64,000 bases of DNA from an uncultured Bacteroidales bacterium (GCA_963838215.1 CAWIQG010000004.1:166826-230825); one strand, 5' to 3'; counted from the stretch's first letter, positions 48,183-64,000 are shown. A program made the numbers and translations. Notes: a model not told the origin generated them from the sequence alone.

Positions 48183-49283
48183 ATGGCATTGAATATTAAA
48201 GAGATCCTGGAAAAGCAGATATTAACCAAAGAAGATATCATTTCGCTTCTTCAATCTGAAGGTGAAGAGAGAACTTTTCTCTTTAAAAAATCTGCTGAAA
48301 TTAAAGAGAAATACATTGGTAATAAGGTATGGTTCAGGGGATTAATCGAATTTTCAAATATATGCAGCAAAGATTGTCTTTATTGCGGGATCAGAAAAGG
48401 CAATAAAAAGCTGGAACGCTACAGCTTAACTGATGATGAGATACTTGCGGCAGCCAGGTTTGCTTATGTCAGCCGTTATGGATCCATAGCCCTTCAATCC
48501 GGAGAACTTGAGAGCAAGTTTGTTACAAGTAGAATTGAAAACCTCCTGCATAAGATTAAGGAATTGTCAAACGGGGAATTAGGTGTGACATTATCTGTTG
48601 GTGAACAGGAACCGGAAGTCTATAAAAAATGGTACGCTGCAGGTGCTCATCGCTATCTGCTGAGAGTTGAATCAACGAATCAGTCACTTTATAACAAGAT
48701 TCACCCGAATGATTCAAAGCATGATTTCCATCGGAGAATGAATTGTCTGAAAAGCCTTCAGGATATCGGTTACCAGACAGGCACCGGGGTGATGATCGGT
48801 TTGCCATTTCAGACCATGGATGATCTTGCTGATGACCTTCTGTTCATGAAAGTTTTTAATATTGATATGTGCGGTATGGGACCTTATATTGAGCATGCCG
48901 ATACACCACTTATAAAACATTCTGATAATCTGTTACCGTTGAAAGAAAGATTTGATCTTACACTCAAGATGATTGCAATTATCAGAATAATGATGAAAGA
49001 TATTAATATTGTTGCTGCAACTGCCCTGCAGGCAATTGATGCTATCGGAAGGGAAAAAGCCGTTAGGATCGGTGCCAATATACTTATGCCAAATATTACA
49101 CCTGGGAAATACCGCGACAGCTATAAACTATATGATAATAAACCCTGCACTGAAGACTCAGCAGAGGACTGCCAGAGTTGTCTGGAGGCACGTATCAGCC
49201 TAGCTGATGCGGAGGTAATCTATGGTGAATGGGGCGATTCGAAACATTACGATATGAGAAGACGACAGATAACAGGTCATTAA
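48183..49283 (+). CDS. hydE: [FeFe]-hydrogenase H-cluster radical-SAM maturase HydE
   Basis: EFSNICSKDCLYCGIRKGN radical-SAM motif. Colinear with my recollection of T. maritima HydE (LQSGE, RYLLR.E(S/T), GLPFQTMDDLADDLLF). Confidence 0.85.
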   Translation: MALNIKEILEKQILTKEDIISLLQSEGEERTFLFKKSAEIKEKYIGNKVWFRGLIEFSNICSKDCLYCGIRKGNKKLERYSLTDDEILAAARFAYVSRYGSIALQSGELESKFVTSRIENLLHKIKELSNGELGVTLSVGEQEPEVYKKWYAAGAHRYLLRVESTNQSLYNKIHPNDSKHDFHRRMNCLKSLQDIGYQTGTGVMIGLPFQTMDDLADDLLFMKVFNIDMCGMGPYIEHADTPLIKHSDNLLPLKERFDLTLKMIAIIRIMMKDINIVAATALQAIDAIGREKAVRIGANILMPNITPGKYRDSYKLYDNKPCTEDSAEDCQSCLEARISLADAEVIYGEWGDSKHYDMRRRQITGH

Positions 49284-49318: not shown

Positions 49319-49843
49319 TCAAAACACCATCGTCCGGACGTGTACCTTTTTTAATGCTCTCAGATATTCTTCGAGCAGAATACGCTGTTTTTCATCTCCT
49401 TTCAGTTCGAGAATGATAAGCCCTGCAGGTTCACCGAAGAATAGTTCATTCACTCCCAGCCGGGTCCGGATATTACAACCATACGCAGTAAGAACTTTTT
49501 GAACAGATAAAATAACGTCATGATCTCTTTCAACAAGAAGGCCCAGAATTTCAACATTATTCCTGACAGGATCAATATTTAAAGTCTCCTTTTTATCTGT
49601 GAAGATCATTTCGCGGAGCTCTATTCCGCCCAGTTCCTTCAGCTCCTTTGTAAGCTTATCTGAATCAGCGGGATCGCCATTAAGATGAAGAATAATATAC
49701 GCCTCACGACTGCAGACTTCATCAGTCACTTCATGAAATCCAAGACGGGTTGTAATAACAGCGGCATGACGGGACAAGATTCCCTGTGTCAATCCGGCTT
49801 CTTTTATTCTGTCGATGATTTTTATTCCGAGAACCTTTATCAT
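49319..49843 (-). CDS. tandem-duplicated TM1266-like 'iron-only hydrogenase system regulator' (NikR C-terminal/ACT-like fold)
   Basis: 174 aa made of two roughly 85-aa halves with the same pattern (VLGIKIIDR...ITTRLGFHEV...YIILHLNGD...ELREMIF versus ILGLLVERD...IRTRLGVNEL...LIILELKGD...HVRTMVF). Lies between hydG and hydE. Confidence 0.65.
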   Translation of the reverse strand: MIKVLGIKIIDRIKEAGLTQGILSRHAAVITTRLGFHEVTDEVCSREAYIILHLNGDPADSDKLTKELKELGGIELREMIFTDKKETLNIDPVRNNVEILGLLVERDHDVILSVQKVLTAYGCNIRTRLGVNELFFGEPAGLIILELKGDEKQRILLEEYLRALKKVHVRTMVF

Positions 49844-50074: not shown

Positions 50075-51499
50075 TCAGAAATATAAGTCTCTTTCCCCTT
50101 TCTTAATTCTTTCAATTTTCTCTTTTGTAATAATAGCCACATTAGGCTCAAGTTTTTCCAGGTTTTTTTCAATTGCCTTCCATCCTTTTTCCACTGTTTC
50201 TCCCTGAGCATAGTCGCAGATATATTCCGAGAGAGTCAGAATAGCGTTAGGTGTGCAGAATCTTTTAATAAACCCGGGTACTGAAAATTCCATAAAATGT
50301 TCGCCAGTACGTCCCATCCTGTAGCACGAAGTGCAGAATGAAGGCAGATAATCGTTTGTGAGTAATTCGTCGATCACTTCAGCCAGCGATCTTGCATCAT
50401 TTATCTTAAATTGTTCGCGATTCAGATCCTGTTTCTCATTTTTTGAGTCAGAATATGAGCCAAGCTCAAGTTTTGTTCCACCATCTATTTGGGAAACACC
50501 ATATTGCATGGCTTCTTTCCTTACATCAGGAGCTTCTCTTGCAGTCAATATCAAACCTGTGTAAGGGACTGCAAGTCTCAGTATAGCAATAAGTTTTTTA
50601 AAATCTTCATCATTTGTCTGGTATTTTCCGTCAATGTTCAGGCTGAGGGCATCTTTGATACGGGGAAATGAGATTGTATGCGGGCCCACATTATAACATG
50701 CCTCAAGATGATTGGTATGCCGTACAAGTCCCAGAACTTCAAACCTCCAGTCGTACAGTCCGAAAAGAGCGCCTATTCCCACATCATCAATTCCTGCTTC
50801 CTGCGCTCTGTCCAAAGCTGTAAGCCGCCATTCAAAGTCTTTCTTTTTACCTCCCAGATGATACCATTTATAAGCTTCGGGATGATATGTTTCCTGAAAT
50901 ATCTGATAAGTTCCTATACCGGATCCTCCTACAGTTCTAAAGCCTTCAATGTCGAGTGGAGCTGCATTTATATTTACCCTCCTTATTTCGCCCCGACCTT
51001 TCTTAACTCCATAAACAATTTTAACTGTTTGGGCGATATATTCCGGTGAGTAATCAGGATGTTCTCCATAAACCAGGATAAGTCTTTTCTGCCCGTTATC
51101 TTCAAGCGCTTCAACTTCTTTGATCAGTTCCTCATTACTCAGGGTTTTCCTGATTGCATCCTTATTCGAAATTCTGAATCCACAATACTGGCAATTATTT
51201 ATACATTTGTTACCAACATATAGAGGAGCAAAAAGCACGATCCGGTTTCCATATACCTTCTCTTTCAGTTCTCTTGCCCCCTGTTTAATCTCATCAGCGA
51301 GATCGGTGCCGATTGAATTTACCAGTACGGCAGTTTCCTGCATTGTAAGCCTTTGTTTATCAAGCGATTTAGCGATAACATCCCTCACCCTTTGCCTTTC
51401 AGGTTTTGTGTTTTTTATCAATGCCCATATCTCTTCAGGATCAATGAATTGTTTCATTCGCTGATCGGGAATACTCAACTTCTCAGGTGAAAACCTCAT
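50075..51499 (-). CDS. hydG: [FeFe]-hydrogenase H-cluster radical-SAM maturase HydG
   Basis: 474 aa. YVGNKCINNCQYCGF radical-SAM motif and C-terminal FCTSCYRMGRTGEHFMEF...FCTPNA cluster motif. Confidence 0.9.
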   Translation of the reverse strand: MRFSPEKLSIPDQRMKQFIDPEEIWALIKNTKPERQRVRDVIAKSLDKQRLTMQETAVLVNSIGTDLADEIKQGARELKEKVYGNRIVLFAPLYVGNKCINNCQYCGFRISNKDAIRKTLSNEELIKEVEALEDNGQKRLILVYGEHPDYSPEYIAQTVKIVYGVKKGRGEIRRVNINAAPLDIEGFRTVGGSGIGTYQIFQETYHPEAYKWYHLGGKKKDFEWRLTALDRAQEAGIDDVGIGALFGLYDWRFEVLGLVRHTNHLEACYNVGPHTISFPRIKDALSLNIDGKYQTNDEDFKKLIAILRLAVPYTGLILTAREAPDVRKEAMQYGVSQIDGGTKLELGSYSDSKNEKQDLNREQFKINDARSLAEVIDELLTNDYLPSFCTSCYRMGRTGEHFMEFSVPGFIKRFCTPNAILTLSEYICDYAQGETVEKGWKAIEKNLEKLEPNVAIITKEKIERIKKGERDLYF

Positions 51500-51565: not shown

Positions 51566-52486
51566 TTAGTATATAAGGTCCGATATCTCTTCTTTTGCCA
51601 AATTAATCCTTACGATTGTTTTATTATCGTAAATATTAACAGAACCATATATTTTTTTATGAAAGTATATTGTAATTTTCTGGTCAGAAAGAGACCACGA
51701 ATTATCAAAAACATTCAAAAGAACTTCTCCTTTATCTTCCTGGTTTTTATGAATTACTACCAAACCTTTTGAAAAAAAAGATCCGCTTTCAGCTGATACT
51801 GCGTAAATTCCGTATGAAGGAAGAAGTTTGCATTCTTCTGTAAGTGGCACTTGTACAAATGGAGGCAGCTCAATAGAAGCCTCACTGACGTACTTTATCG
51901 GTTTCCCAATGATAATGTAATAGTGATCAAGATAAGCATTTGCCCTCTGGATATATCCCTCGCTTATAGCCTGGCGTATTTTTGTTGAACTGACCGTTTC
52001 GTGCTGAACCTCCTGTTCAGGTATATCTTCGGCTTCAAAATTATATTTCCCCTGCCATGCCCAAAGTTGTTTATAATCTCCTTCCTTATTGAATCCAAAA
52101 TGATGGTTAAATCCTGAAACAACTACCTTAGCATGTAAAATACCATGAAGAAAATCTTTAACAAACTGCTCGCTGGTAATTTTAGAGAACTCCCTGGTGA
52201 ATTCTATGATGATAACATTATTAAGACCGGTTTTCTCAAGGAGCTCCAGTTTTTCCTCCTGCGAATAAATAAGCTTCAGGTCCTTACCTGCAGTATCGGG
52301 GTAAAGCACTTTCCTGGGATGCGGGTCAAATGTGATGAGCACCGATTCACCGTCGTGCTTCTCAGCCAGCATTTTTAACCGTTTAAGAATGGTCTTATGT
52401 CCGATATGAACCCCATCGAACGATCCGGTTGTCACAACAGGATTTCTGATAATCTTTGCATCTTCAAAGTTTCTGAAAATATTCAT
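51566..52486 (-). CDS. ribF: bifunctional riboflavin kinase / FMN adenylyltransferase
   Basis: 306 aa. VVTTGSFDGVHIGH motif. Confidence 0.9.
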   Translation of the reverse strand: MNIFRNFEDAKIIRNPVVTTGSFDGVHIGHKTILKRLKMLAEKHDGESVLITFDPHPRKVLYPDTAGKDLKLIYSQEEKLELLEKTGLNNVIIIEFTREFSKITSEQFVKDFLHGILHAKVVVSGFNHHFGFNKEGDYKQLWAWQGKYNFEAEDIPEQEVQHETVSSTKIRQAISEGYIQRANAYLDHYYIIIGKPIKYVSEASIELPPFVQVPLTEECKLLPSYGIYAVSAESGSFFSKGLVVIHKNQEDKGEVLLNVFDNSWSLSDQKITIYFHKKIYGSVNIYDNKTIVRINLAKEEISDLIY

Positions 52487-52498
52487 GAAGGCAGAATC

Positions 52499-53122
52499 CT
52501 AAATTTTATTTTCTTTCACAAAGTATGCAACTTTCTCGATAGAGGTAATCATATCATATTCTTCGAGATAGACTCCTGACGGAACATTTAAAGGAATAGT
52601 TGTAAAATTGAGAATACCTTTTATTCCGTATCTGACTGTTTCTTCAGCTATTTCCCTTGCATATTCAGGTGGAACAGTAAGAATGGCTATTCTTATATCG
52701 AGTTCTGTTATTATTTTTTCTATATCGCTGTAAGGATAGCATTTCACTCCCGAAATGACTTTATTAACCTTCTGGATATCGTTGTCAAACGAAGCCACAA
52801 GATTCAGTTTTGACCGTTTCCCCTTAAAATAACCTGCTACAGCTCTTCCCAGATTTCCGATTCCAATTATTGCGACATTCATGCTCACTTCCGAATCAAT
52901 GATAATTCCAATTTTATCAATAAGCTCCCTGACGTCGTATCCTTTTCTAAGAACACTCGAATATCCAATCAGCATCAGATCGCGCCTGACCTGTACTGCA
53001 GTAATGTGAAGACGGGCGGCCAGCTCGTGAGAAAAAATGAAGTTTCTCTTTTCATTAAGGCACTCCAGAAGTGTCCTTCTGTATTCACTCAGCCTTTCTA
53101 CGGTTCTTCCTGGTAATTTCAT
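52499..53122 (-). CDS. rex: redox-sensing transcriptional repressor Rex
   Basis: 207 aa. N-terminal winged helix (RLSEYRRTL...ISSHELA) and Rossmann AIIGIGNLGRA. Confidence 0.9.
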   Translation of the reverse strand: MKLPGRTVERLSEYRRTLLECLNEKRNFIFSHELAARLHITAVQVRRDLMLIGYSSVLRKGYDVRELIDKIGIIIDSEVSMNVAIIGIGNLGRAVAGYFKGKRSKLNLVASFDNDIQKVNKVISGVKCYPYSDIEKIITELDIRIAILTVPPEYAREIAEETVRYGIKGILNFTTIPLNVPSGVYLEEYDMITSIEKVAYFVKENKI

Positions 53123-53183: not shown

Positions 53184-54320
53184 TTAATTAAAGGTTATTG
53201 GTTTTTTTGGTAATCTTATTGTAAACACTGTTCCAACATCGGGTGTGCTGTCAACCTTAACTGTACCATGATAAAGTTCCACGACTTTTTTAACAATGGA
53301 CAATCCAAGTCCGCTACCGGATATATTCCTTGTCTTTTCGTTTTTAATTCTTACAAATTCGGCAAACAGGTTATCTGTGTCATTTTTTGTTATACCTATT
53401 CCCGTATCGGAAAAAATGAGAATAGCTTCACTATCAGAACTATCAATGGTAATTTCGGCTTTTCCACCTATTTTATTGTACTTTACTGCATTAGAAATGA
53501 GATTATTAAAAACAATCTCCATATCATCGGGGTCAGCCATTATAATGGCATCAGAGCGAACATCAAGATTAATGCTTACATCCATCTGGATCGCATAGGG
53601 CTGAACAGTTATTATTGCATTTGAAGCCACTTCAGAAAGATTGACTTCCTGTATTTTTTCCTCTTTCCTTTCAAGACGTATCTTTGTAAAATCAAGAAGG
53701 TCCATAATAAGGTTTCTCATTCCCTGTATCCTTTGAAGAGATCTTTCGATTGGAGTTGCATAATCTTCAATTCTGTCCCCTGACTGCTTCTCCTGCATCA
53801 TCCTGAGATATCCTTCCAGTGCATTTAATGGAGCCTTCAATTCGTGTGAAAGAACTGAAAGAAACTGGTACCTGACCTTCTTCCCATCCTGTTTCAATTT
53901 ATGCGTTATTCTCTTCAGATACTGTTGTTTCGTAATGTTTTCGATGCTCGATTTTAATTCCTGTGGAGTAAATGGTTTTGGGATGAAATCAATGGCTCCA
54001 TCGCGGGTAGCCCTTAATGCAACATCAAGCGATGCATACGATGTGATCATTGCCACGACAATATCATAGTTCCTTTTTTTTATGTACTCAAGTACATCCA
54101 CCCCCTGTATTCCCGGCAACTTATTATCGAGCAAAAGGATATCCGGCATATCGTGTTCAAGAATAGTGATACCTTCTTCGCCTGTTCCGGCTTCAGTCAC
54201 TTCAAATGTATAATCCTCATCCATAAAAGGATAAGTGACATGGAAATTGTTCAGTATCCTGGAAACCCCTGAACGTATTCCCGGTTCATCATCAATGACA
54301 AGTACTTTTAAAACAGCCAT
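53184..54320 (-). CDS. hybrid REC-HisKA-HATPase protein (receiver-regulated histidine kinase, soluble)
   Basis: N-terminal REC (VLVIDDEPG, ILLLDNKLPG, IPKPF), H-box LSHELKAPLN, G2 GSGLGLSIVKKV. No TM segment and no DNA-binding domain. Confidence 0.85.
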   Translation of the reverse strand: MAVLKVLVIDDEPGIRSGVSRILNNFHVTYPFMDEDYTFEVTEAGTGEEGITILEHDMPDILLLDNKLPGIQGVDVLEYIKKRNYDIVVAMITSYASLDVALRATRDGAIDFIPKPFTPQELKSSIENITKQQYLKRITHKLKQDGKKVRYQFLSVLSHELKAPLNALEGYLRMMQEKQSGDRIEDYATPIERSLQRIQGMRNLIMDLLDFTKIRLERKEEKIQEVNLSEVASNAIITVQPYAIQMDVSINLDVRSDAIIMADPDDMEIVFNNLISNAVKYNKIGGKAEITIDSSDSEAILIFSDTGIGITKNDTDNLFAEFVRIKNEKTRNISGSGLGLSIVKKVVELYHGTVKVDSTPDVGTVFTIRLPKKPITFN

Positions 54321-54321
54321 A

Positions 54322-54717
54322 TTATAGTTTTAAGAGTTTCATAACCTCCTGATCAAGCTGTTCGGGTCTGATACCTTTTTCAAGATATTTGTCAGCCCTG
54401 ATCCATGATTTTTCCTGTTCTGAATCGATACTGAAAGATAAGCCTGTTTCGTGCGATACTGCTGTTGCAAGTATAACAGGTACGTCAGGATATTTTCTCT
54501 TTAACTTATAACACAGGATAAAGCCGCTGTCGTCACTCTCCATCATCAGGTCAAAAATTGCCAGATCAGGTTTGAATCTGGCAATAACCGATTCAGCCTC
54601 TGTCTGGCTCTCCACGGCCATGGTTTTGTATCCTGCCTTCTCCAGATTAAATACAGTCTGAAAAAGATAATCCGGATCATCATCTGCAATCAATATTGTA
54701 AAATCACTCTTCTTCAT
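54322..54717 (-). CDS. stand-alone receiver (REC) protein
   Basis: 131 aa. ILIADDD, AIFDLMM, ILATAV and YLEKG supply the conserved D/D/T/K positions. No output domain. Confidence 0.85.
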   Translation of the reverse strand: MKKSDFTILIADDDPDYLFQTVFNLEKAGYKTMAVESQTEAESVIARFKPDLAIFDLMMESDDSGFILCYKLKRKYPDVPVILATAVSHETGLSFSIDSEQEKSWIRADKYLEKGIRPEQLDQEVMKLLKL

Positions 54718-54793
54718 CTTTCTACAAATTTCTAAAAATTCTTTAAATCAACCAGTTATTATGATAAATATGATTGTAGTTATTTTATTAACA

Positions 54794-54847
54794 GTGTGTG
54801 GTTCGGGGTGTGTGGCAAGAGGCATACTCAACCGCAAACCTCAAACG
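54794..54847. repeat. GC-rich short repeats (GTGTGTGG x2; heptamer CTCAACC/GCAAACC/TCAAACG)
   Basis: gtgtgtgg at 54794 and 54808. Three degenerate 7-mers at 54827-54847, directly after the sensor-kinase stop (minus strand). Confidence 0.7.
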
Positions 54848-54861
54848 ACGTACCACTGATC

Positions 54862-56823
54862 CTATTCTTTTCGTCTCGGTAACACAATTTTGAAGCTTGT
54901 TCCTGTTGGCCCTTTTGCAGAATTATTATTCGATTCAGCTGTAATCTGCCCTTTGTGCATTTTGACAATACCATATGCGGTTGCCAGCCCCAGTCCTGTA
55001 CCTTGCCCAATACTTTTAGTAGTAAAAAAAGGTTCGAAAATCTTAGCTCTATCTTCCTCCCTGATACCTGTTCCGGAATCGCTTATAGTAATAATAACAT
55101 CACCCAGAGTATCTTCCAGACTGATATCAATTTTCCCTCCGCCCGGCATTGCGTCAATCGCGTTTTTTATCAGATTTGTAAAAACCTGCATCATTTGTTC
55201 CGAATCGAGCATTGCCTCAGGGTTTGTTGTTAAATCCAAAACATTAATTTTAATTTTTTCAGGAACAATCATACTCTCAAGGCTATGATTAACAAGCTCT
55301 TTAATACTTACTATCTGGTGGTTCACCTGGTTCTTCCGCGCAAAATTAAGCAACCCTGCGACAATTTTTTTGCATCTGCCGGCCTGCTCTACAATGAGTT
55401 TAAGATCTTCCCGTACAGGATCCCCGGCAGAGGATTCTTCCAGAAGGATGTTGCTGTACATTATCACTACTCCAAGAGGATTATTAAGCTCATGAGCAAT
55501 ACCGGCTGAAAGCTGACCCATGTGAGCAAGTTTTTCTGATTGTTTCAGAGCCTGTTTCATTGAGGAGAGCTTCTCGTTCGACAATGCAAGGTCTTTTACC
55601 GACTTGTGAAGCTTTTCAATAGTATATGGAAGGCACATCTCGACTTCTGCAAGACCCTTTTTAATAGCTATTGCATGCTCCACACAACTTTCATAGCCGC
55701 AGGCACCACAATCGAGCTGGTCTTTCTTTGTTTTCTTGCCCATTCTTATAAGAACATCGTTCACATCATTTTCATCCAGGACAGCAATTCGATGATCCTC
55801 AGCCTTATGACGGAATGAAAGATCAAGCTCTGCAAATTCATCAAATGATTTTTGCCAAAAATCGGAATCAATATTCTGCATTTTACTGTTTGCATAGGAA
55901 CTTACAAGTGCCCGTCTGTTGTACTGTTTTCCATTTTTCGATAATCCGGGCCCCATTATACATCCTTCACAACAGAGAAGTTCCATGTGCTGGTTCTTTA
56001 TCAATCCCGCTTCAAATTCTTTTAATGCGCCCTGAAAATCTATCCTCCCTTCGGCGGCAATAATATTACCTGTGATAGCATTATCGCTGATTTTGGCTGT
56101 CTGAAGCAATCCGCGTGCTACAGGGAAAATAGCACCTCTTCCACCTACAGGCTGGTCAAAATCAATCAGTTTACTGTTTTCAGGAGTGATATCCCTGTCG
56201 GCAAACATATCTCTTAATTCAGTAAAGGTTATTGCCTCATCTATTTCGACGCTTTCAGCTTTTTTTGCAATGCATGGTCCTATAAAAACAATTTTTGCAT
56301 CCTTACCATATTTTTCACGTATCACTCTGCTCATCGCCACCATTGGAGAAACTATCGGAGCCAGATTATCAACAAGAGCCGGATGATAGTATTTGATGTA
56401 GTTTACAATTGAAGGACAATCAGACGAAATATAAAAATCTCTGCTTTCCGTGACGAGTTTTTTATATCGATCTGCCACAAGGTCAGCACCAAAAGAGACT
56501 TCCGCCACATATTCAAATCCGAGCGCCTTTATCATACCTATGAGAACACGGTAGTCAGCAAAATCAGAGAATTCAGCCGGGAAACTCGGAGCAATAATAG
56601 CAGCAACTTTCTTTTCATTTTCAAGAAGTTTTACTACCCTGTCAGTTGTATTCAGAAAAACTTTTGCACCCTGGCTGCATACTTTGGTACAATTTCCGCA
56701 TGCTATACACCTTTCGTCTATAACCTCGGCCTGTCCTCCGACAATACGAATAGCTTTGGCAGGGCATTCCCTTACACAGGTATAGCAGGTACGACAAAGT
56801 TCCTTTATTGTATAAACCAGCAT
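54862..56823 (-). CDS. [FeFe]-hydrogenase-like sensor fused to a histidine kinase (ferredoxin + H-domain-like + Cx2Cx4Cx16C + HisKA + HATPase)
   Basis: CRTCYTCVRECP and CIACGNCTKVCS; H-domain-like motifs SSDCPS, GPCIAKKAE, LLCCEGCIMGPG; DCGACGYESCVEHAIAIKKGLAEVEMC; H-box GIAHELNNPLG; GTGLGLATAYGIV. Confidence 0.85.
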   Translation of the reverse strand: MLVYTIKELCRTCYTCVRECPAKAIRIVGGQAEVIDERCIACGNCTKVCSQGAKVFLNTTDRVVKLLENEKKVAAIIAPSFPAEFSDFADYRVLIGMIKALGFEYVAEVSFGADLVADRYKKLVTESRDFYISSDCPSIVNYIKYYHPALVDNLAPIVSPMVAMSRVIREKYGKDAKIVFIGPCIAKKAESVEIDEAITFTELRDMFADRDITPENSKLIDFDQPVGGRGAIFPVARGLLQTAKISDNAITGNIIAAEGRIDFQGALKEFEAGLIKNQHMELLCCEGCIMGPGLSKNGKQYNRRALVSSYANSKMQNIDSDFWQKSFDEFAELDLSFRHKAEDHRIAVLDENDVNDVLIRMGKKTKKDQLDCGACGYESCVEHAIAIKKGLAEVEMCLPYTIEKLHKSVKDLALSNEKLSSMKQALKQSEKLAHMGQLSAGIAHELNNPLGVVIMYSNILLEESSAGDPVREDLKLIVEQAGRCKKIVAGLLNFARKNQVNHQIVSIKELVNHSLESMIVPEKIKINVLDLTTNPEAMLDSEQMMQVFTNLIKNAIDAMPGGGKIDISLEDTLGDVIITISDSGTGIREEDRAKIFEPFFTTKSIGQGTGLGLATAYGIVKMHKGQITAESNNNSAKGPTGTSFKIVLPRRKE

Positions 56824-56842: not shown

Positions 56843-58564
56843 TCATAATAACACATTTCTTTTTTCAAAATGAGTATAAAATATCTTTTTATTTGTAATG
56901 TCATTATTTTCTTTTAAAAACTTCTCATAGAGATTAATTATTGCCGGTGATTTGCAAGGTAAATTAATTGCTTCAGTATCATCGGTCTGATAAATAAATT
57001 TCGCCCGATTCCTGATTTCTTCTTTTGAAGTACTGAAAGGCAGTCCTGCTCCATGTACACATCCCCCGGGACACGTCATCACTTCAATAAGATCGTATTT
57101 TTTACCTGAAACAGTAGATGTTCTTAGTTTTTCAAGACCCGTAAGCCCGTCAATTACAGCTATATTCAACTCAGTTTCGCCAATATATACTTTTGTCTCC
57201 CTGAAGGACCCACCAGACCGGAGTTTTTTAAAAAGCTGTTTGTCAACCTCTTTCTTAAGTTTCAGAAAATGGAACGAACGTATAACTCCTTCAGCCAATC
57301 CGCCTGATACTTCAGCCAGTACCGCTGCAGAACTTCTCCCTGCCATTGGTTCGTCTGCCGGTTCATGTTCAATATTTGTTGTGTCTATACCATATAACCG
57401 TATAAGCCTGGCTAGTTCTCTTACAGTCAAAACAGAATCAACGTCACTTATTCCCTTTCTCATCATTCCATCGCGACGGGCTTCAAATTTCATTGCCATA
57501 CAAGGAGTTACAGATACCGAAAAGATTTCTTCCGGTTTCGCACCTGACTGTCCGGCAACAAGTGTTTTAACCAGAACCCCGGTTATCTGTTGCGGCGATT
57601 TTACTGTGGAGAGCTGCGGAATTAGCGAAGGGATGAACTGCTCTGCATATTTAACCCAGGCCGGGCAGGCAGAAATAATTAAAGGTGTTTCAGATTTATT
57701 TTCAATTTTTTCTGATAACTGACCGGTAATTTCAGTGATACATACATCAGTGCCTGTACCTGTTGTGAATACTTTATCGAAACCTATCTTGCGCAGAATG
57801 GCATTCAGTATTTTATCAAATTCCCTGTTGTACCTCATCCCGAGTTCTTCAGCAATTCCGACAGTCACCAAAGGGGAATACTGAATGATTTTAACAATAT
57901 CAGGTTTATGAAGGTATTCCTGAACTTCGGTTATGTTATGCTTTTCATGAAGTGCTCCGGTAGGACAAACGAGCACGCACTGGCCGCAATGAATACAACT
58001 TGAGAAGTTGAAATCTTTGTCCATTGCTGCCCCGATATGTGTCTCTTTTCCTTTATTAATAAAATCGAGTGAAATTGAAGTTATGACCTCCTCACAGACT
58101 CTGACACATCTTCCGCAAAGAATACATTTCGAGAGCTCCCTGACAATGGCAGGGCTCGACTGGTCGAGATGAGGTTTTATCTTTTTGCCTCGTATCCGTC
58201 GCTCCCGGATGTTCAGTTCTTCAGAAAGACGCTGCAATTCACAATTCAGGTTCCTGTCGCAATAAAGGCAATCATCCGGATGATTTGAGAGAAGAAGCTC
58301 AACTATCGTTTTTCTTGCCATTATCACTCTTGGGGAATGGGTTTTTATTTTCATCCATTCTTCTACTGGCTGAGAGCAGGCTGTGACCAGACGGTCGCGA
58401 CCATCGACTTCAACTACACACATTCTGCAGGCGCCTGTCGGAGTAAACTCCTTCATCCTGCAAAGAGTAGGAATAATGATCCCGTTACGATTAAGGGCTG
58501 AGAGAATAGTCTCACCTTTTTCAGCCCTGATCTTTTTATTATTTACCTGTATTGTAAAAAGCAT
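56843..58564 (-). CDS. hydA: [FeFe]-hydrogenase large subunit HydA, CpI-like M3 architecture, non-canonical active-site surroundings
   Basis: 573 aa. N-terminal 2Fe-2S, His-ligated 4Fe-4S (HPDDCLYCDRNLNC), two ferredoxin motifs, H-domain motifs ISACPAW / TPCMAMKFE / EVMTCPGGCVHGAG, small-subunit-like C-terminus (SPAIINLYEKFL...YTHFEKR). Confidence 0.85.
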   Translation of the reverse strand: MLFTIQVNNKKIRAEKGETILSALNRNGIIIPTLCRMKEFTPTGACRMCVVEVDGRDRLVTACSQPVEEWMKIKTHSPRVIMARKTIVELLLSNHPDDCLYCDRNLNCELQRLSEELNIRERRIRGKKIKPHLDQSSPAIVRELSKCILCGRCVRVCEEVITSISLDFINKGKETHIGAAMDKDFNFSSCIHCGQCVLVCPTGALHEKHNITEVQEYLHKPDIVKIIQYSPLVTVGIAEELGMRYNREFDKILNAILRKIGFDKVFTTGTGTDVCITEITGQLSEKIENKSETPLIISACPAWVKYAEQFIPSLIPQLSTVKSPQQITGVLVKTLVAGQSGAKPEEIFSVSVTPCMAMKFEARRDGMMRKGISDVDSVLTVRELARLIRLYGIDTTNIEHEPADEPMAGRSSAAVLAEVSGGLAEGVIRSFHFLKLKKEVDKQLFKKLRSGGSFRETKVYIGETELNIAVIDGLTGLEKLRTSTVSGKKYDLIEVMTCPGGCVHGAGLPFSTSKEEIRNRAKFIYQTDDTEAINLPCKSPAIINLYEKFLKENNDITNKKIFYTHFEKRNVLL

Positions 58565-61041: not shown

Positions 61042-61059
61042 TTGTTAATAAATAAACAT
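61042..61059. promoter_or_regulatory. second, imperfect Rex-like box (TTGTTAA-TAAA-TAAACAT)
   Basis: Perfect left half-site. The right half-site has 2 mismatches. Abuts the perfect box. Confidence 0.3.
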
Positions 61060-61076
61060 TGTTAATTTATTAACAA
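61059..61076. promoter_or_regulatory. Rex-type operator TTGTTAA-TTTA-TTAACAA
   Basis: Perfect 7-bp inverted half-sites with a 4-nt spacer, matching the clostridial-type Rex consensus TTGTTAAnnnnTTAACAA as I recall it. Located in the divergent hydC / 2Fe-2S-gene promoter region; rex is encoded 8 kb away in the same locus. Confidence 0.6.
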
Positions 61077-61286: not shown

Positions 61287-61556
61287 ATGAACAGTAAGAA
61301 AATGGCTCAAAGAATTGAAATGCAGATTTGTCTTGGCAGTTCATGTTTCTCCAGAGGTAACAAAGATGTGGTAATGTTCATACGCGAATACCTCAGGAAA
61401 AATCATCTCGATGACAAAGTCATTTTTAAAGGAGCGCGTTGTATGGACCGTTGCAGTAATGGTCCGAATCTTAATATAAACGGAATGATTATTGAGGATG
61501 TCACCATTTCAAAAATTGAGTGCATTCTGGAAAAAGAGCTTGCCAGATTTATATAA
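61287..61556 (+). CDS. small thioredoxin-like [2Fe-2S] ferredoxin (HfsA/NuoE-like)
   Basis: 89 aa. CLGSSCFSRG and ARCMDRCSNGPNLNING (Cx4C...Cx3C). Confidence 0.8.
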   Translation: MNSKKMAQRIEMQICLGSSCFSRGNKDVVMFIREYLRKNHLDDKVIFKGARCMDRCSNGPNLNINGMIIEDVTISKIECILEKELARFI

Positions 61557-61609
61557 ACTCAAATAAGTACCTGAAATGCACCGAAATTCGGGTGCTTAAA
61601 ATTATAAGC

Positions 61610-63496
61610 ATGATAAACGGAAAACCTGTTCTTTACATAAATGATAAAAAATGCAGAAATTCATATTCCTGCGTGCGTGTCTGCCCTGTAAATGCCATTG
61701 AGGTCAGGCCCCAGAAGGCGCATCCATATATCCTTCCTGCCAGATGCATAGGATGCGGATTATGTTATGTATCATGCACTCCTGACGCGATTGAGTTCCG
61801 CGACTCCAGCGAAGATGTGAAGAAATTATTATCATCGGGCAGGAAAACTGCAGCTCTTATTGAACCAAGTATTGCATCGGAGTTTGACGATATTACTGAT
61901 TACAGGAAGCTTGTTGCAATGATAAGATTGCTCGGATTTGATTATGTTCATGAAGGTTCGTTCGGAGCTGATCTGATAGCGGCAGCTTATGCAAAACTAT
62001 TCTCGAAAGCTGAAGGCAAGTATCTTATAACTGCCAACTGCCCGTCAATTGTTAAAATGATAGAAAAATTTCATCCGGAACTTGTGCCTAATCTTGCACC
62101 ATTAGTTTCACCGATGATTGCTACGGCAATGGTTGTTAAAGAGTTATATGGAGATGATGTAGCCACGGTCCAGATTGGGCCATGCATAGATGCGAAAGAT
62201 GAATCTTTGATTTATAATTCAGGTAAGCTTGTCGATGGGGTCCTGACTTTTGTTGAAGTGCGACAGCTTTTTGATGAATTCAGGATACAGGAGAGACTCG
62301 TAAAAATGTCGGATTTCGATCCACCGCATGGCAACTGGGGAGCCCTCTACCCTCTTCCTGCCGGCATTATACAGGCAGGAGGAATAAAACGCGATATGGT
62401 TTCGAGCAGTGTAATTACGGCTTCAGGAAAAGAAGAGATCCTTGAAGCAATTAATGACTTCGATAAGTACATTGACACTATTCAGCACCATTTTAACCTT
62501 TTCTTCTGTCACGGATGTCTTCTTGGCCCGGGTATGGAACAACATAACGAACGTTTCAGGAGAAGATCGCTTGTGCGGAAGTATGCAGAAAAGAGGGTTG
62601 GCAAACTTGATAAAGCGCTTTGGCAAAAGAATATGGAAAAATGGTCGAAACTCGATTTTTCAAGAACCTTCACACCTGACGACCAGAGAATTCCTGAACC
62701 TCCGGAAGAGTCTATAGCAGAAGTACTTAAAATTATCGGTAAAGACAATCCTGATGAAGAGATAAACTGTGGAGCTTGCGGATATCTATCGTGCCGCGAA
62801 TTTGCCTCGACGGTGGCAAAAGGGCTCGCAGTTCCTGAAATGTGTCACACTTTCAATCTTCGCAATAAGCAGGAGTATATTGAAACATTAAGACAGACTA
62901 ACCGAAAACTGGCTGAAACTAAAAAGGCTCTCAAAGAATCAGAAGAACTTGCCCGTCGGGAAAAGGAGATTGCCCAGAGTGCTTCGGATATGATGAATAA
63001 CATGCTCGAAAAGCTTCCAACCGGGGTGGTCATTGTGGACAATAATCTCAAAATACTTCATTCCAATCAAAGCTTTATTAATATAATCGGCGAAGATGCC
63101 AGGGCAATCTCCGATGTCATTCCCGGACTGGTTGGCGCTGATGTCAAGACTCTAATCCCTTTCAATGTATATAACATGTTTACATTTGTTATAAAAGAAG
63201 ATGAGCCTGTTGTGAGCAAAGATGTTCACTTTGAAGACAAAATGCTGAATATTTCAATCTTCCCAATAAGGAAGAATAAGATATGCGGGGCAATAATCCG
63301 CGATCTCTATTCCCCTGAAGTGCAAGGTGAAGAGGTGACAAACAGGGTAAGTGAAGTAATTGATAAGAACCTTGAAATGGTACAAAAGATCGGATTTTTG
63401 CTTGGAGAAGGCGCTTCAGAGACTGAACAGATGCTCAATTCAATTATCGAATCATATAAAAAGAAAAAAGGAAATCTGAAAAATAATCAGAAATAA
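61610..63496 (+). CDS. [FeFe]-hydrogenase-like PAS sensor (HydS/HfsB-like)
   Basis: Start moved to MINGKPVLYI. Ferredoxin motifs CRNSYSCVRVCP (one Cys missing) and CIGCGLCYVSC; H-domain-like TANCPS, GPCIDAKDE, FFCHGCLLGPG; NCGACGYLSCREFASTVAKGLAVPEMC; coiled coil; C-terminal PAS-like region (LPTGVVIVDNNLKILHSNQSF). Confidence 0.85.
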   Translation: MINGKPVLYINDKKCRNSYSCVRVCPVNAIEVRPQKAHPYILPARCIGCGLCYVSCTPDAIEFRDSSEDVKKLLSSGRKTAALIEPSIASEFDDITDYRKLVAMIRLLGFDYVHEGSFGADLIAAAYAKLFSKAEGKYLITANCPSIVKMIEKFHPELVPNLAPLVSPMIATAMVVKELYGDDVATVQIGPCIDAKDESLIYNSGKLVDGVLTFVEVRQLFDEFRIQERLVKMSDFDPPHGNWGALYPLPAGIIQAGGIKRDMVSSSVITASGKEEILEAINDFDKYIDTIQHHFNLFFCHGCLLGPGMEQHNERFRRRSLVRKYAEKRVGKLDKALWQKNMEKWSKLDFSRTFTPDDQRIPEPPEESIAEVLKIIGKDNPDEEINCGACGYLSCREFASTVAKGLAVPEMCHTFNLRNKQEYIETLRQTNRKLAETKKALKESEELARREKEIAQSASDMMNNMLEKLPTGVVIVDNNLKILHSNQSFINIIGEDARAISDVIPGLVGADVKTLIPFNVYNMFTFVIKEDEPVVSKDVHFEDKMLNISIFPIRKNKICGAIIRDLYSPEVQGEEVTNRVSEVIDKNLEMVQKIGFLLGEGASETEQMLNSIIESYKKKKGNLKNNQK

Positions 63497-63502
63497 GCTT
63501 TA

Positions 63503-64000
63503 GTGAACAAGAACTTTTATATAGAGGTAAACAGCCAGCAAAGGAACTACGACGGAGAGAGAATTTGCGGAGATGTCTTCCTATACCGGTATATAAAAGA
63601 AGAAGACAGGGTTATTGCTGTATTGTCTGACGGGATGGGGCATGGAGTTAAAGCAAATATACTTGCTACACTCACTGCAACAATGGCTCTCAATTTCACC
63701 CGGGAACATAAAGAGGTTGACCATATTGCAGATATAATAATGAATACATTGCCAGTTTGCAGCGAAAGGAAAATAAGCTATTCCACATTCACAATAATCG
63801 ACATTGAGAGCAGTGGCCGGGCCACCATACTCGAATATGACAATCCTTCAACTATTGTCTTGAGAGGCAATCAGATGTTTGATCCTTCTTGGAAAAAGGT
63901 AATTCTTGAAAAAGGAAAACATTCCGGGAAAGTGCTTAAGACCTGTACCTTTAAACCTGAAAAGGAAGACAGGATAATCTTCTGCTCAGATGGAGTTTCG
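63503..64000 (+). CDS. SpoIIE/PP2C-family serine phosphatase (HfsC/RsbU-like), 3' end beyond window
   Basis: Not in the ORF track. GTG at 63503 opens a frame translating VNKNFYIEVNSQQRNYDGERICGDVFLYRYIKEEDRVIAVLSDGMGHGVKANILA...RIIFCSDGVS, which has the GD...DGMGHG...SDG PP2C signature. Confidence 0.8.
   Translation, partial: MNKNFYIEVNSQQRNYDGERICGDVFLYRYIKEEDRVIAVLSDGMGHGVKANILATLTATMALNFTREHKEVDHIADIIMNTLPVCSERKISYSTFTIIDIESSGRATILEYDNPSTIVLRGNQMFDPSWKKVILEKGKHSGKVLKTCTFKPEKEDRIIFCSDGVS

Follow-up and report, generated by a model that had tools for sequence, protein, structure and literature searches.

How putative H2-sensing [FeFe] hydrogenases transmit their signal is a question of the field, and the identification of their partners has been called for (PMC11376134, PMC13104023). 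A stretch of 64,000 nucleotides from an uncultured Bacteroidales bacterium (GCA_963838215.1, CAWIQG010000004.1:166826-230825; the whole stretch is referred to below as the window) poses this question in a particular form. At its 3' end, from position 61287 to 64000, three tightly packed plus-strand genes stand in a row: the first encodes an 89-amino-acid (aa) thioredoxin-like [2Fe-2S] protein, the second a 628-aa [FeFe]-hydrogenase-like sensor and the third, which starts with GTG, a PP2C/SpoIIE phosphatase. An earlier interpretation of the locus (hereafter the sequence-only reading) had described this trio as divergent and had likened it to the hfsABC genes of Thermoanaerobacterium. Is the trio a genuine unit, is its sensor unusual, and how might it signal? 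The trio proved to be a real, strongly conserved operon of an already recognised type, with a few unusual details, and not a new kind of system. We consider it fairly probable that it constitutes a putative H2- or redox-sensing device of the phosphatase-linked group C type, situated beside the hydCBA genes, for which a signalling route can be proposed.

A conserved operon of three genes

The first two genes of the trio are separated by 53 nt, and only 6 nt lie between the stop codon of the sensor gene and the GTG codon of the phosphatase gene, whose reading frame is cut by the end of the window. The locus is extended by L001, a public Logan contig whose 5466-nt overlap with the window is 100% identical. 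When species-representative genomes were scanned, 588 relatives were returned; the 80 best were taken as the ortholog set, and all of these belong to Bacteroidales or Rikenellaceae metagenome-assembled genomes (MAGs), and their sensors are 72-94% identical to that of the window. The gene of the small [2Fe-2S] protein lies 5' of the sensor gene in 80/80 of these loci, and the phosphatase gene comes next in 79, the contig ending in the remaining one. Since the synteny extends over 80/80 related species-level loci at 72-94% sensor identity, the arrangement goes far beyond chance, and the tight plus-strand spacing noticed in the sequence-only reading was reproduced. In some 70 loci hydC-hydB-hydA lie divergent to the trio and are followed by the gene of a second sensor fused to a kinase; hydCBA is missing in four loci and the kinase-fused sensor in four. 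Because some loci thus lack one or the other, we regard the trio as a stable unit.

The 89-aa protein (61287-61556, plus strand, ATG to TAA) carries a Cx4C motif (C15, C20) and a Cx3C motif (C52, C56). It matches Pfam PF01257 with an E-value of 7.6e-10 and 39.3 bits (cutoff 24.8), the match spanning profile positions 61-143 of 145, that is, the C-terminal half only. The four Cys residues are invariant and line up with those that ligate the cluster in the HydC of the window. The proposal of a 2Fe-2S protein was therefore borne out by the above-cutoff match and the Cys alignment, and the protein is, as judged from its sequence, the counterpart of the C-terminal cluster-binding half of NuoE/HydC.

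The second gene (61610-63496, plus strand) encodes a 628-aa [FeFe]-hydrogenase-like sensor of group C (M2f, HydS-type), an assignment that draws on Pfam, AlphaFold2, Foldseek and homologues. Its span had been given correctly, and the length of 629 aa quoted with it counted the stop codon. The ATG at 61610 is favoured over GTG 61592 (the public gene call) and GTG 61520 because homologues begin at the matching position. The sensor matches the Pfam families Fe_hyd_lg_C (1.5e-36), several Fer4 families and PF04060 (FeS, 1.1e-8), and has 3791 homologues at E<=1e-10. Its AlphaFold2 model (predicted local distance difference test score, pLDDT, 88.9) retrieves [FeFe] hydrogenases as top Foldseek matches (E ~1e-21). 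All four Cys ligands of the H-cluster (C144, C192, C300, C303) are present and are kept in 80/80 orthologs. The Fe_hyd_lg_C match, the motifs and the fold matches support the view that this is a hydrogenase-like sensor of HydS/HfsB type; it is predicted to bind an H-cluster and may respond to H2.

The sensor begins with a ferredoxin-like F-domain for two clusters (61634-61807), recognised by Fer4 families, in which motif 1 reads C15-x2-S18-x2-C21-x3-C25 and motif 2 (C46, C49, C52, C56) is complete. The H-domain follows with the three H-cluster motifs: L1, ITANCPSIV (62027-62053), with the ligand Cys144 and Asn143 at the proton-relay position (Cys299 in CpI); L2, IGPCIDAKDE (62174-62203), with the ligand Cys192, Ala at +3 (the CpI Lys358 position) and Lys196 at +4; and L3, NLFFCHGCLLGPG (62495-62533), whose ligands, Cys300 and Cys303, sit in a loop that lacks one residue of the canonical C-x3-C. 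A C-terminal [4Fe-4S] motif, Cx2Cx4Cx16C (C387, C390, C395, C412; 62768-62845), accounts for the PF04060 match and is invariant in two alignments of sensor relatives (A1 and A2); its spacing is exactly that given for M2e/M2f enzymes (PMC8163306). A long helix of 55 residues (413-467; 62846-63010), modelled by AlphaFold2 and probably a coiled-coil linker, contains an insertion of about 38 residues with respect to 580-aa TmHydS-like relatives (A1).

The linker leads into a PAS-like domain (residues 468-566; 63011-63307), for which the modelled topology over residues 472-565 consists of two strands, helices and three strands, with C-terminal helices after it. Because no family passes the Pfam threshold, the PAS call rests on this topology, on the alignment to relatives and on PAS matches in 36/69 aligned members of the sensor family; the description of the sensor as PAS-type thus has fold and relatives in its favour and finds no above-threshold Pfam match. 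The protein ends in a conserved tail, NLEMVQKIGFLLGEGASETEQMLNSI (63368-63445), without counterpart in the kinase-fused paralog. As picked by the locus-search tool, the tail is the most conserved stretch of alignment A1 (pattern I[GA][FT][LI]LGE[GN]A[SA]), and it is a candidate docking element. Overall, the architecture is the group C (M2f) type of TmHydS, plus some 38 linker residues.

The third gene starts with GTG at 63503 on the plus strand and encodes an HfsC-type PP2C/SpoIIE phosphatase, the N-terminal 166 of whose 394 residues lie in the window (63503-64000); the gene ends at the window-equivalent position 64687. It is complete on L001 (4969-6153, protein P0271), and an identical protein is encoded on a 1.14-Mb contig. 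The SpoIIE family PF07228 matches the in-window part at 3.7e-11 and the full-length protein at 7e-12 (46.1 bits, cutoff 25), which bears out the gene call of the sequence-only reading. The Asp motifs of PP2C enzymes are complete: D24 (GD, 63569-63574), D43 (SDGMGHG, 63626-63646), D163 (SDG, 63986-63994) and D221/D222 (DDIS), an assignment that draws on general features of the family and on an alignment to RsbX. They are invariant in a four-clade alignment (A4) and kept in 79/79 orthologs, so that the full sequence retains the catalytic Asp residues on which the earlier identification depended. The best structural matches are SpoIIE (5ucg, 4.6e-9), 3pu9 (1.2e-8) and RsbX (3w40, 2.5e-8).

The enzyme thus shares with SpoIIE/RsbU/RsbX-type phosphatases the PPM fold and the four metal-binding Asp motifs, but differs from them in a conserved C-terminal alpha/beta domain of about 160 residues (235-394; window-equivalent 64205-64687), for which neither Pfam nor PDB sequences nor Foldseek gave a significant match. 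The motifs GGTTA, DLVTEG and GTRIN..HQDP of this domain are kept across clades. The length of the phosphatase is nearly fixed, at 394-401 aa, in every clade examined, and phosphatases are 51-54% identical across clades, C-terminal domain included, when the matching sensors are only 31-44% identical. A further difference from the SpoIIE/RsbU/RsbX type is the absence of any nearby gene for a STAS-type substrate or a partner kinase. The extension of the contig, which the sequence-only reading had proposed with a possible kinase or STAS-type partner in mind, revealed no kinase, STAS or hfsD-like gene after the phosphatase, either in L001 or in 70 related loci; nor did a STAS/RsbW-type protein occur among the 10 short open reading frames of the window that were scanned (99-215 aa).

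Downstream of the phosphatase gene on L001, a strong hairpin is followed by minus-strand genes for a DUF4890 protein and a carbonic anhydrase; in related loci this place is taken by NUDIX-like, membrane metallophosphoesterase or other genes. The hairpin (L001 6254-6283), with 11 pairs of which 8 are G-C, separates the stop codon of the phosphatase gene from the convergent DUF4890 gene; its score is that of a terminator on the minus strand, and both convergent transcripts may end there. About 4 kb downstream of the operon, the minus strand of L001 (10220-13022) encodes a protein of more than 1085 aa that has a SpoIIE domain and faintly matches Reg_prop (propeller); it is kept nearby in 16 related loci. 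A scan for sigma-70 promoters was uninformative (12 sites, 12.3 expected), the tool not covering Bacteroidota promoters.

Motif variants of the sensor within its family

To place the variant motifs of the sensor, two samples were surveyed, namely 150 representatives of 50%-identity clusters and the 80 orthologs. The motifs cited in the sequence-only reading were exact: the first ferredoxin motif is CRNSYSCVRVCP, as against CRTCYTCVRECP in the kinase-fused paralog, and ITANCPS, IGPCIDAKDE and the L3 motif of the sensor were also quoted correctly, the L3 of the paralog being ELLCCEGCIMGPG. Most of the motifs that had been called divergent are, by comparison of these sequences, ordinary variation of the family.

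This applies to L3, the spacing of which had been thought to set the two sensors apart. Both have the short C-x-G-C loop, found in 59/150 representatives including the paralog (85/150 have the long loop), and the paralog only has an extra preceding Cys. An interpretation of the CxxC spacing as a lost H-cluster ligand was rejected, the alignment placing there a one-residue deletion common to these 59 representatives. The Asn at the relay position of L1, likewise advanced as a divergence, is routine in the family, although fixed in the Bacteroidales clade: the representatives have Ala (68), Thr (19), Pro (16), Ser (11), Asn (10) or Cys (9) there (n=150), and the Asn and Cys of L1 are kept in all 80 orthologs. 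Lack of conservation of the proton-relay Cys (CpI C299) is, moreover, a published criterion for M2f enzymes (PMC8163306), with which Asn143 of the sensor agrees. For L2, the motif had been read correctly, but the Lys described as shifted by one has not moved: the Lys358 equivalent is lost, and the better conserved Lys at +4 is retained. Across the family, Lys occupies +3 in 112/146 and +4 in 137/146 sequences, the former being missing in 34/146; the pattern C-[IL]-D-x-K is present in 80/80 orthologs, and the loss of the Lys358 equivalent spans the whole clade of ~620-aa sensors.

The exception is Ser18 (codon TCA, 61661-61663), which replaces the second Cys of motif 1 and leaves 7/8 F-domain Cys in place. 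Of 139 representatives, 137 have Cys at this position, one has Ser (~1%) and one Gly; Ser is confined to the cluster of the window sensor and to one 40%-identical relative (P0124). The 80 orthologs have Ser (77), Thr (2) or Ala (1), never Cys, and all four TCN codons are used, which indicates that the replacement is old and maintained. Judging from the motifs, it is the sole rare difference between the two sensors that could alter cluster content. The outer cluster of CpI (FS4B) is bound by the first three Cys of motif 1 and the last Cys of motif 2, so that Ser18 would presumably affect the outer cluster. In 7Fe ferredoxins a missing second Cys is typical of [3Fe-4S] clusters, and the outer F-cluster of the sensor is possibly [3Fe-4S] or Ser-ligated. 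In five representatives (P0171, P0216, P0230, P0238, P0268) the second ferredoxin motif, CI(L/G)DG(K/R)C, has Asp in place of its second Cys; with this change in the other F-cluster, second-Cys replacements recur in the sensor family. Of the suggestion that the two sensors of the locus have diverged in cluster content, the part based on L3 has to be given up and the part based on Ser18 is possible, as is a difference in the signals that they report. All the variant features, that is, Ser18, the absence of the Lys358 equivalent, the longer linker, the absence of hfsD and the pairing with a kinase-fused sensor around hydABC, are clade-wide.

Known systems, relatives and the hydrogenase island

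In Thermoanaerobacterium, hfsB encodes a PAS-containing [FeFe] hydrogenase and hfsC a Ser phosphatase (PMC11837493). The order of the window trio, a small protein, a probably PAS-containing [FeFe]-hydrogenase-like protein and a Ser phosphatase, is the same as in the hfsABCD operons of T. saccharolyticum and T. thermosaccharolyticum, a likeness taken from published description. The gene order proposed in the sequence-only reading thus agrees with the published one (PMC11837493) and with two hfsABCD-like metagenomic loci, but the likeness stops short of hfsD, which encodes a ferredoxin-linked catalytic [FeFe] hydrogenase, not a kinase: the window operon ends after the phosphatase, lacks an hfsD-like catalytic hydrogenase and is divergent from hydCBA. 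HfsA, for its part, has been described in one paper otherwise than as a 2Fe-2S ferredoxin. The metagenomic loci encode an 83-101-aa PF01257 protein, a 580-aa sensor, a 394-395-aa PP2C enzyme (51% identical), a small open reading frame and a 477-481-aa hydrogenase; compared with their sensors (580-582 aa), that of the window is about 45 residues longer, which includes the linker insertion of about 38 residues. Deletion of hfsA or hfsB in T. saccharolyticum raises ethanol yield and adhE expression, intact hfsC and hfsD were found to be necessary for high ethanol yield, and deletion of hfsC/D or of the whole hfsABCD brings no rise (PMC5707799). These genetics fit a sensor that, with its small partner, restrains the phosphatase.

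HydDB lists putative C3, phosphatase-linked, sensory hydrogenases (PMC5037454), defined by being encoded with a Ser/Thr phosphatase; in the window the PP2C gene begins 6 nt after the sensor stop codon, and the two are adjacent in 79/80 loci. By gene and motif comparison, the trio is of this C3, HfsABC-like kind; its H-domain is nonetheless nearer to kinase-linked representatives. The sensor shares with TmHydS of Thermotoga maritima the F-domain, the H-domain, the Cx2Cx4Cx16C cluster, a PAS-like domain, the replaced relay Cys (absent also in TamHydS) and the change of Met353 to Gly, and its PAS-plus-tail region is on average 38% identical to that of TmHydS-like representatives. It differs from this type in that its H-domain is only ~28% identical and its L3 loop one residue shorter; TmHydS is reported to keep the residues that hydrogen-bond the [2Fe] subcluster, whereas the window sensor lacks the Lys358 equivalent, has Asn at the relay position (Ala in TmHydS) and carries Ser18 in the first F-cluster motif. 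With HydDB group C1, the histidine-kinase-linked sensors including the paralog at 54862-56823, it has in common the short C-x-G-C L3 loop and the C-terminal four-Cys motif, and its H-domain, 34% identical on average and 41% to the paralog, is nearer to them than to the TmHydS type. In place of the fused HisKA and HATPase domains of C1, it has a PAS-like domain and tail, unrelated to the kinase type, with a separate PP2C enzyme; in addition, the paralog keeps all eight F-domain Cys and a Lys-Lys pair in L2. The short-loop kinase-linked and long-loop TmHydS-like groups were sorted by simple regular expressions and the identities are approximate; to that approximation, the sensor appears to be a mosaic with an H-domain like that of kinase-fused sensors and an output module like that of TmHydS. 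Literature searches found no paper on HydS together with PP2C.

The link between sensor and phosphatase extends to other clades. The two genes are adjacent in 6/8 informative clade contexts, and where the relatives are distant they abut or even overlap. The same order of small protein, sensor and phosphatase was compared with the window trio in loci L087, L090, L091 and L092. The relative P0127 (38% identity) is encoded with an 83-aa 2Fe-2S gene and a 394-aa PP2C; P0124 lies between a kinase gene and a PP2C gene; and P0123 has the PP2C gene 5' of the sensor. P0125 stands alone, and the contig of P0121 ends at the sensor. The TmHydS-like P0145 and P0149 (580-582 aa) are encoded in the order Rex, 2Fe-2S gene, sensor, 394-395-aa PP2C, small open reading frame and 477-481-aa hydrogenase. 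Further representatives of the sensor family come from Holophagaceae and Spirochaetaceae.

Locus L087 (1633-9624) contains, in order, genes for an Fe-type alcohol dehydrogenase, a protein of no known kind, Rex, a 2Fe-2S protein, a 580-aa sensor, a 395-aa PP2C, an 88-aa open reading frame and a 481-aa hydrogenase. Its hfsABCD-like operon comes directly after the alcohol dehydrogenase gene, which echoes the regulatory link between hfsB and adhE reported in Thermoanaerobacterium. The locus probably derives from Lentimicrobium (Bacteroidota), as a cluster member does, and an origin in Firmicutes was dropped for that reason.

A sister lineage has lost H-cluster ligands. P0122 (L084 5903-7768), 48% identical to the window sensor, lacks all four H-cluster Cys (IASNDP, GPDIASK, FYGN--SL) and retains the full set of eight Cys in the F-domain, the four-Cys motif at the C-terminus, the PAS-plus-tail region and an upstream 86-aa 2Fe-2S gene. 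Its gene is divergent from Rex and has no adjacent phosphatase, and the protein has the appearance of a "pseudo-hydrogenase" sensor. P0138 is likewise without H-cluster Cys, and P0132 is also without those of L2 and L3.

In the window, maturases, RibF, Rex, the two sensors and hydABC form a hydrogenase island of about 16 kb. The maturase genes, about 10 kb from the sensor gene, encode HydE (48183-49283; 354 bits, cutoff 255) and HydG (50075-51499; 482 bits, cutoff 312), with a tandem CPF_0552/TM1266-like putative regulator between them (49319-49843); no HydF was found among the window open reading frames examined. RibF (51566-52486) and Rex (52499-53122) follow. A minus-strand group at 53184-56823 encodes the 653-aa hydrogenase-like protein fused to HisKA and HATPase domains, which is the paralogous sensor (54862-56823, about 5 kb from the sensor of the trio), then a 131-aa stand-alone receiver and a 378-aa receiver-kinase hybrid; in L024, L027, L030 and L069 the fused sensor is missing and both downstream genes are retained. 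HydA (56843-58564, minus strand) is of M3 type and looks catalytic, with atypical H-cluster motifs: L1, IISACPAWV, has Ala for CpI Cys299; L2, VTPCMAMKFE, has Thr for Met353 and Met for Lys358 and keeps the Lys at +4; and L3 ends in GAGLP, not GGGQP. An alignment to HydA1 of T. kivui (8a6t) confirmed these substitutions, those of L1 and L2 recur in most of 63 orthologs, and L3 varies. The protein stays below the NCBIfam "group A6" cutoff (590 against 765 bits).

Between the divergent hydC and 89-aa genes lies a perfect palindrome resembling a Rex operator, TTGTTAATTTATTAACAA (61059-61076, no strand assigned), 66 nt 5' of the hydC start and 211 nt 5' of the 89-aa gene. It is the sole zero-mismatch match in the 64-kb window, and a similar box is present in 58/75 orthologous intergenic regions between hydC and the small 2Fe-2S gene; Rex may bind there.

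A possible signalling route and its alternatives

We propose that the sensor would be matured with an H-cluster, given the four conserved ligand Cys and the HydE and HydG encoded about 10 kb away, and that it would turn over H2 slowly, like TmHydS and TamHydS. Electrons would leave through the two N-terminal clusters, the outer one atypical owing to the change of Cys to Ser, and the small co-encoded [2Fe-2S] protein would accept them and reset the sensor. The state of the H-domain would be relayed through the C-terminal [4Fe-4S] domain, the 55-residue helix, the PAS-like domain and the conserved tail. This output would switch the translationally coupled 394-aa PP2C enzyme, which the sensor most likely restrains in one state, and the phosphatase would act on a Ser/Thr-phosphorylated protein encoded elsewhere, tuning hydrogenase and fermentation genes alongside Rex and the kinase-fused sensor. 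The contact between sensor and phosphatase, the direction of control and the nature of the substrate are steps that we infer.

Several observations weigh against such a route. No member of the family has a demonstrated signalling mechanism, partner or H2-dependent output (PMC11376134; 2026 study PMC13104023), and H2 does not reduce TamHydS's C-terminal cluster, an argument against a simple redox relay by way of that cluster. The equivalent of Lys358, which hydrogen-bonds a cyanide ligand in prototypical enzymes, is absent from the whole clade. All Pfam PAS families match the sensor below their gathering scores (E 0.0015-0.01), the best being PAS_10 (E 0.0015, 19.6 bits, cutoff 22.1). The phosphatase model has medium confidence (pLDDT 69.9) and rests on a shallow alignment, the profile search having returned almost only the 86-94% identical Bacteroidales clade; and neither the operon itself nor its downstream region nor any of the 10 short window open reading frames that were scanned encodes a substrate candidate (STAS, kinase or other). 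Furthermore, since P0122 has lost the four H-cluster Cys and kept the rest, the sensor scaffold may work without H2 chemistry.

This last point leads to the view, which we hold to be rather unlikely, that the module senses redox state inside the cell (that of the ferredoxin or NAD(P)H pool) and not H2. The small [2Fe-2S] protein would feed electrons into the Fe-S chain of the sensor, the PAS and phosphatase output would be set by how far these clusters are reduced, and the H-cluster site would be secondary or vestigial. The loss of H-cluster Cys in P0122, which keeps its other modules and sits next to Rex, and in P0138 (and of those of L2 and L3 in P0132) would agree with it, as would the clade-wide loss of the Lys358 equivalent, the altered and so conserved motif of the outer F-cluster, and the presence of Rex, itself a redox sensor, at the same locus. 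That the four H-cluster Cys are conserved in 80/80 orthologs at 72-94% identity, however, implies that selection acts to keep the cluster; the genes of HydE and HydG are adjacent, and characterised relatives bind a functional H-cluster. The opposite emphasis, that the 628-aa protein is mainly a hydrogenase of low catalytic activity with the 89-aa protein as its electron-transfer subunit and the phosphatase unrelated or loosely coupled, appears very unlikely. In its favour, TmHydS and TamHydS are slow catalysts of H2 turnover, the first description of the hfs operon had it encode the main hydrogenase of T. saccharolyticum, and an F-domain with a NuoE-like 2Fe-2S partner resembles an electron path; but here Asn takes the place of the relay Cys299 and Ala that of Lys358, an output module of PAS-like domain and tail is present, and the phosphatase is coupled in 79/80 orthologous loci and in distant clades, with genes that abut or overlap. 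Activity is, besides, provided by a separate hfsD-like hydrogenase in hfs-type loci, and a full hydABC operon lies next door.

A last alternative takes the odd motifs as signs of lost function in a decaying paralog or recent duplicate of the kinase-fused sensor, for which one could cite the change of Cys to Ser in a cluster motif, the loss of the Lys358 equivalent and a second sensor only 5 kb away. It was rejected, and is effectively refuted by conservation: across 80 species the conservation of the sensor amounts to 72-94%, no ligand Cys is lost and Ser18 persists through synonymous codon turnover, it has more than 3700 homologues, no frameshifts or stop codons were seen in the orthologs, and the two sensors are 34% identical overall (41% in the H-domain) with different output modules. 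Thus, a phosphatase-linked sensory device is the reading we retain. A more far-reaching version of it is tentative and, in our estimation, unlikely: Ser18 might shift the potential of the outer cluster ([3Fe-4S] or Ser-ligated) and, with the loss of Lys358, give this sensor an H2 or redox set-point different from that of the kinase-fused one, so that both sensors, as a two-threshold comparator together with Rex, would control the hydABC genes between them, and the C-terminal domain of the phosphatase might be the docking partner of HydS-type sensors.

The locus sharpens, and does not answer, the question of HydS signalling, through a phosphatase of nearly fixed length, its conserved C-terminal domain, the abutting genes and the conserved tail of the sensor; this tail and the C-terminal domain of the phosphatase are concrete candidates for the signalling interface. 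To hydrogenase chemists it offers natural variants, namely a Ser in an F-cluster motif, a sensor without the Lys358 equivalent and a sister lineage without H-cluster ligands. That hydABC is flanked by two different sensory hydrogenases and Rex is relevant to the question of how fermentation in anoxic habitats is steered by the partial pressure of H2. The trio documents a widespread lineage of uncultured Bacteroidales, represented by MAGs from peat, fen, sediment and digesters, and it probably lets this uncultured bacterium sense hydrogen or its redox state.

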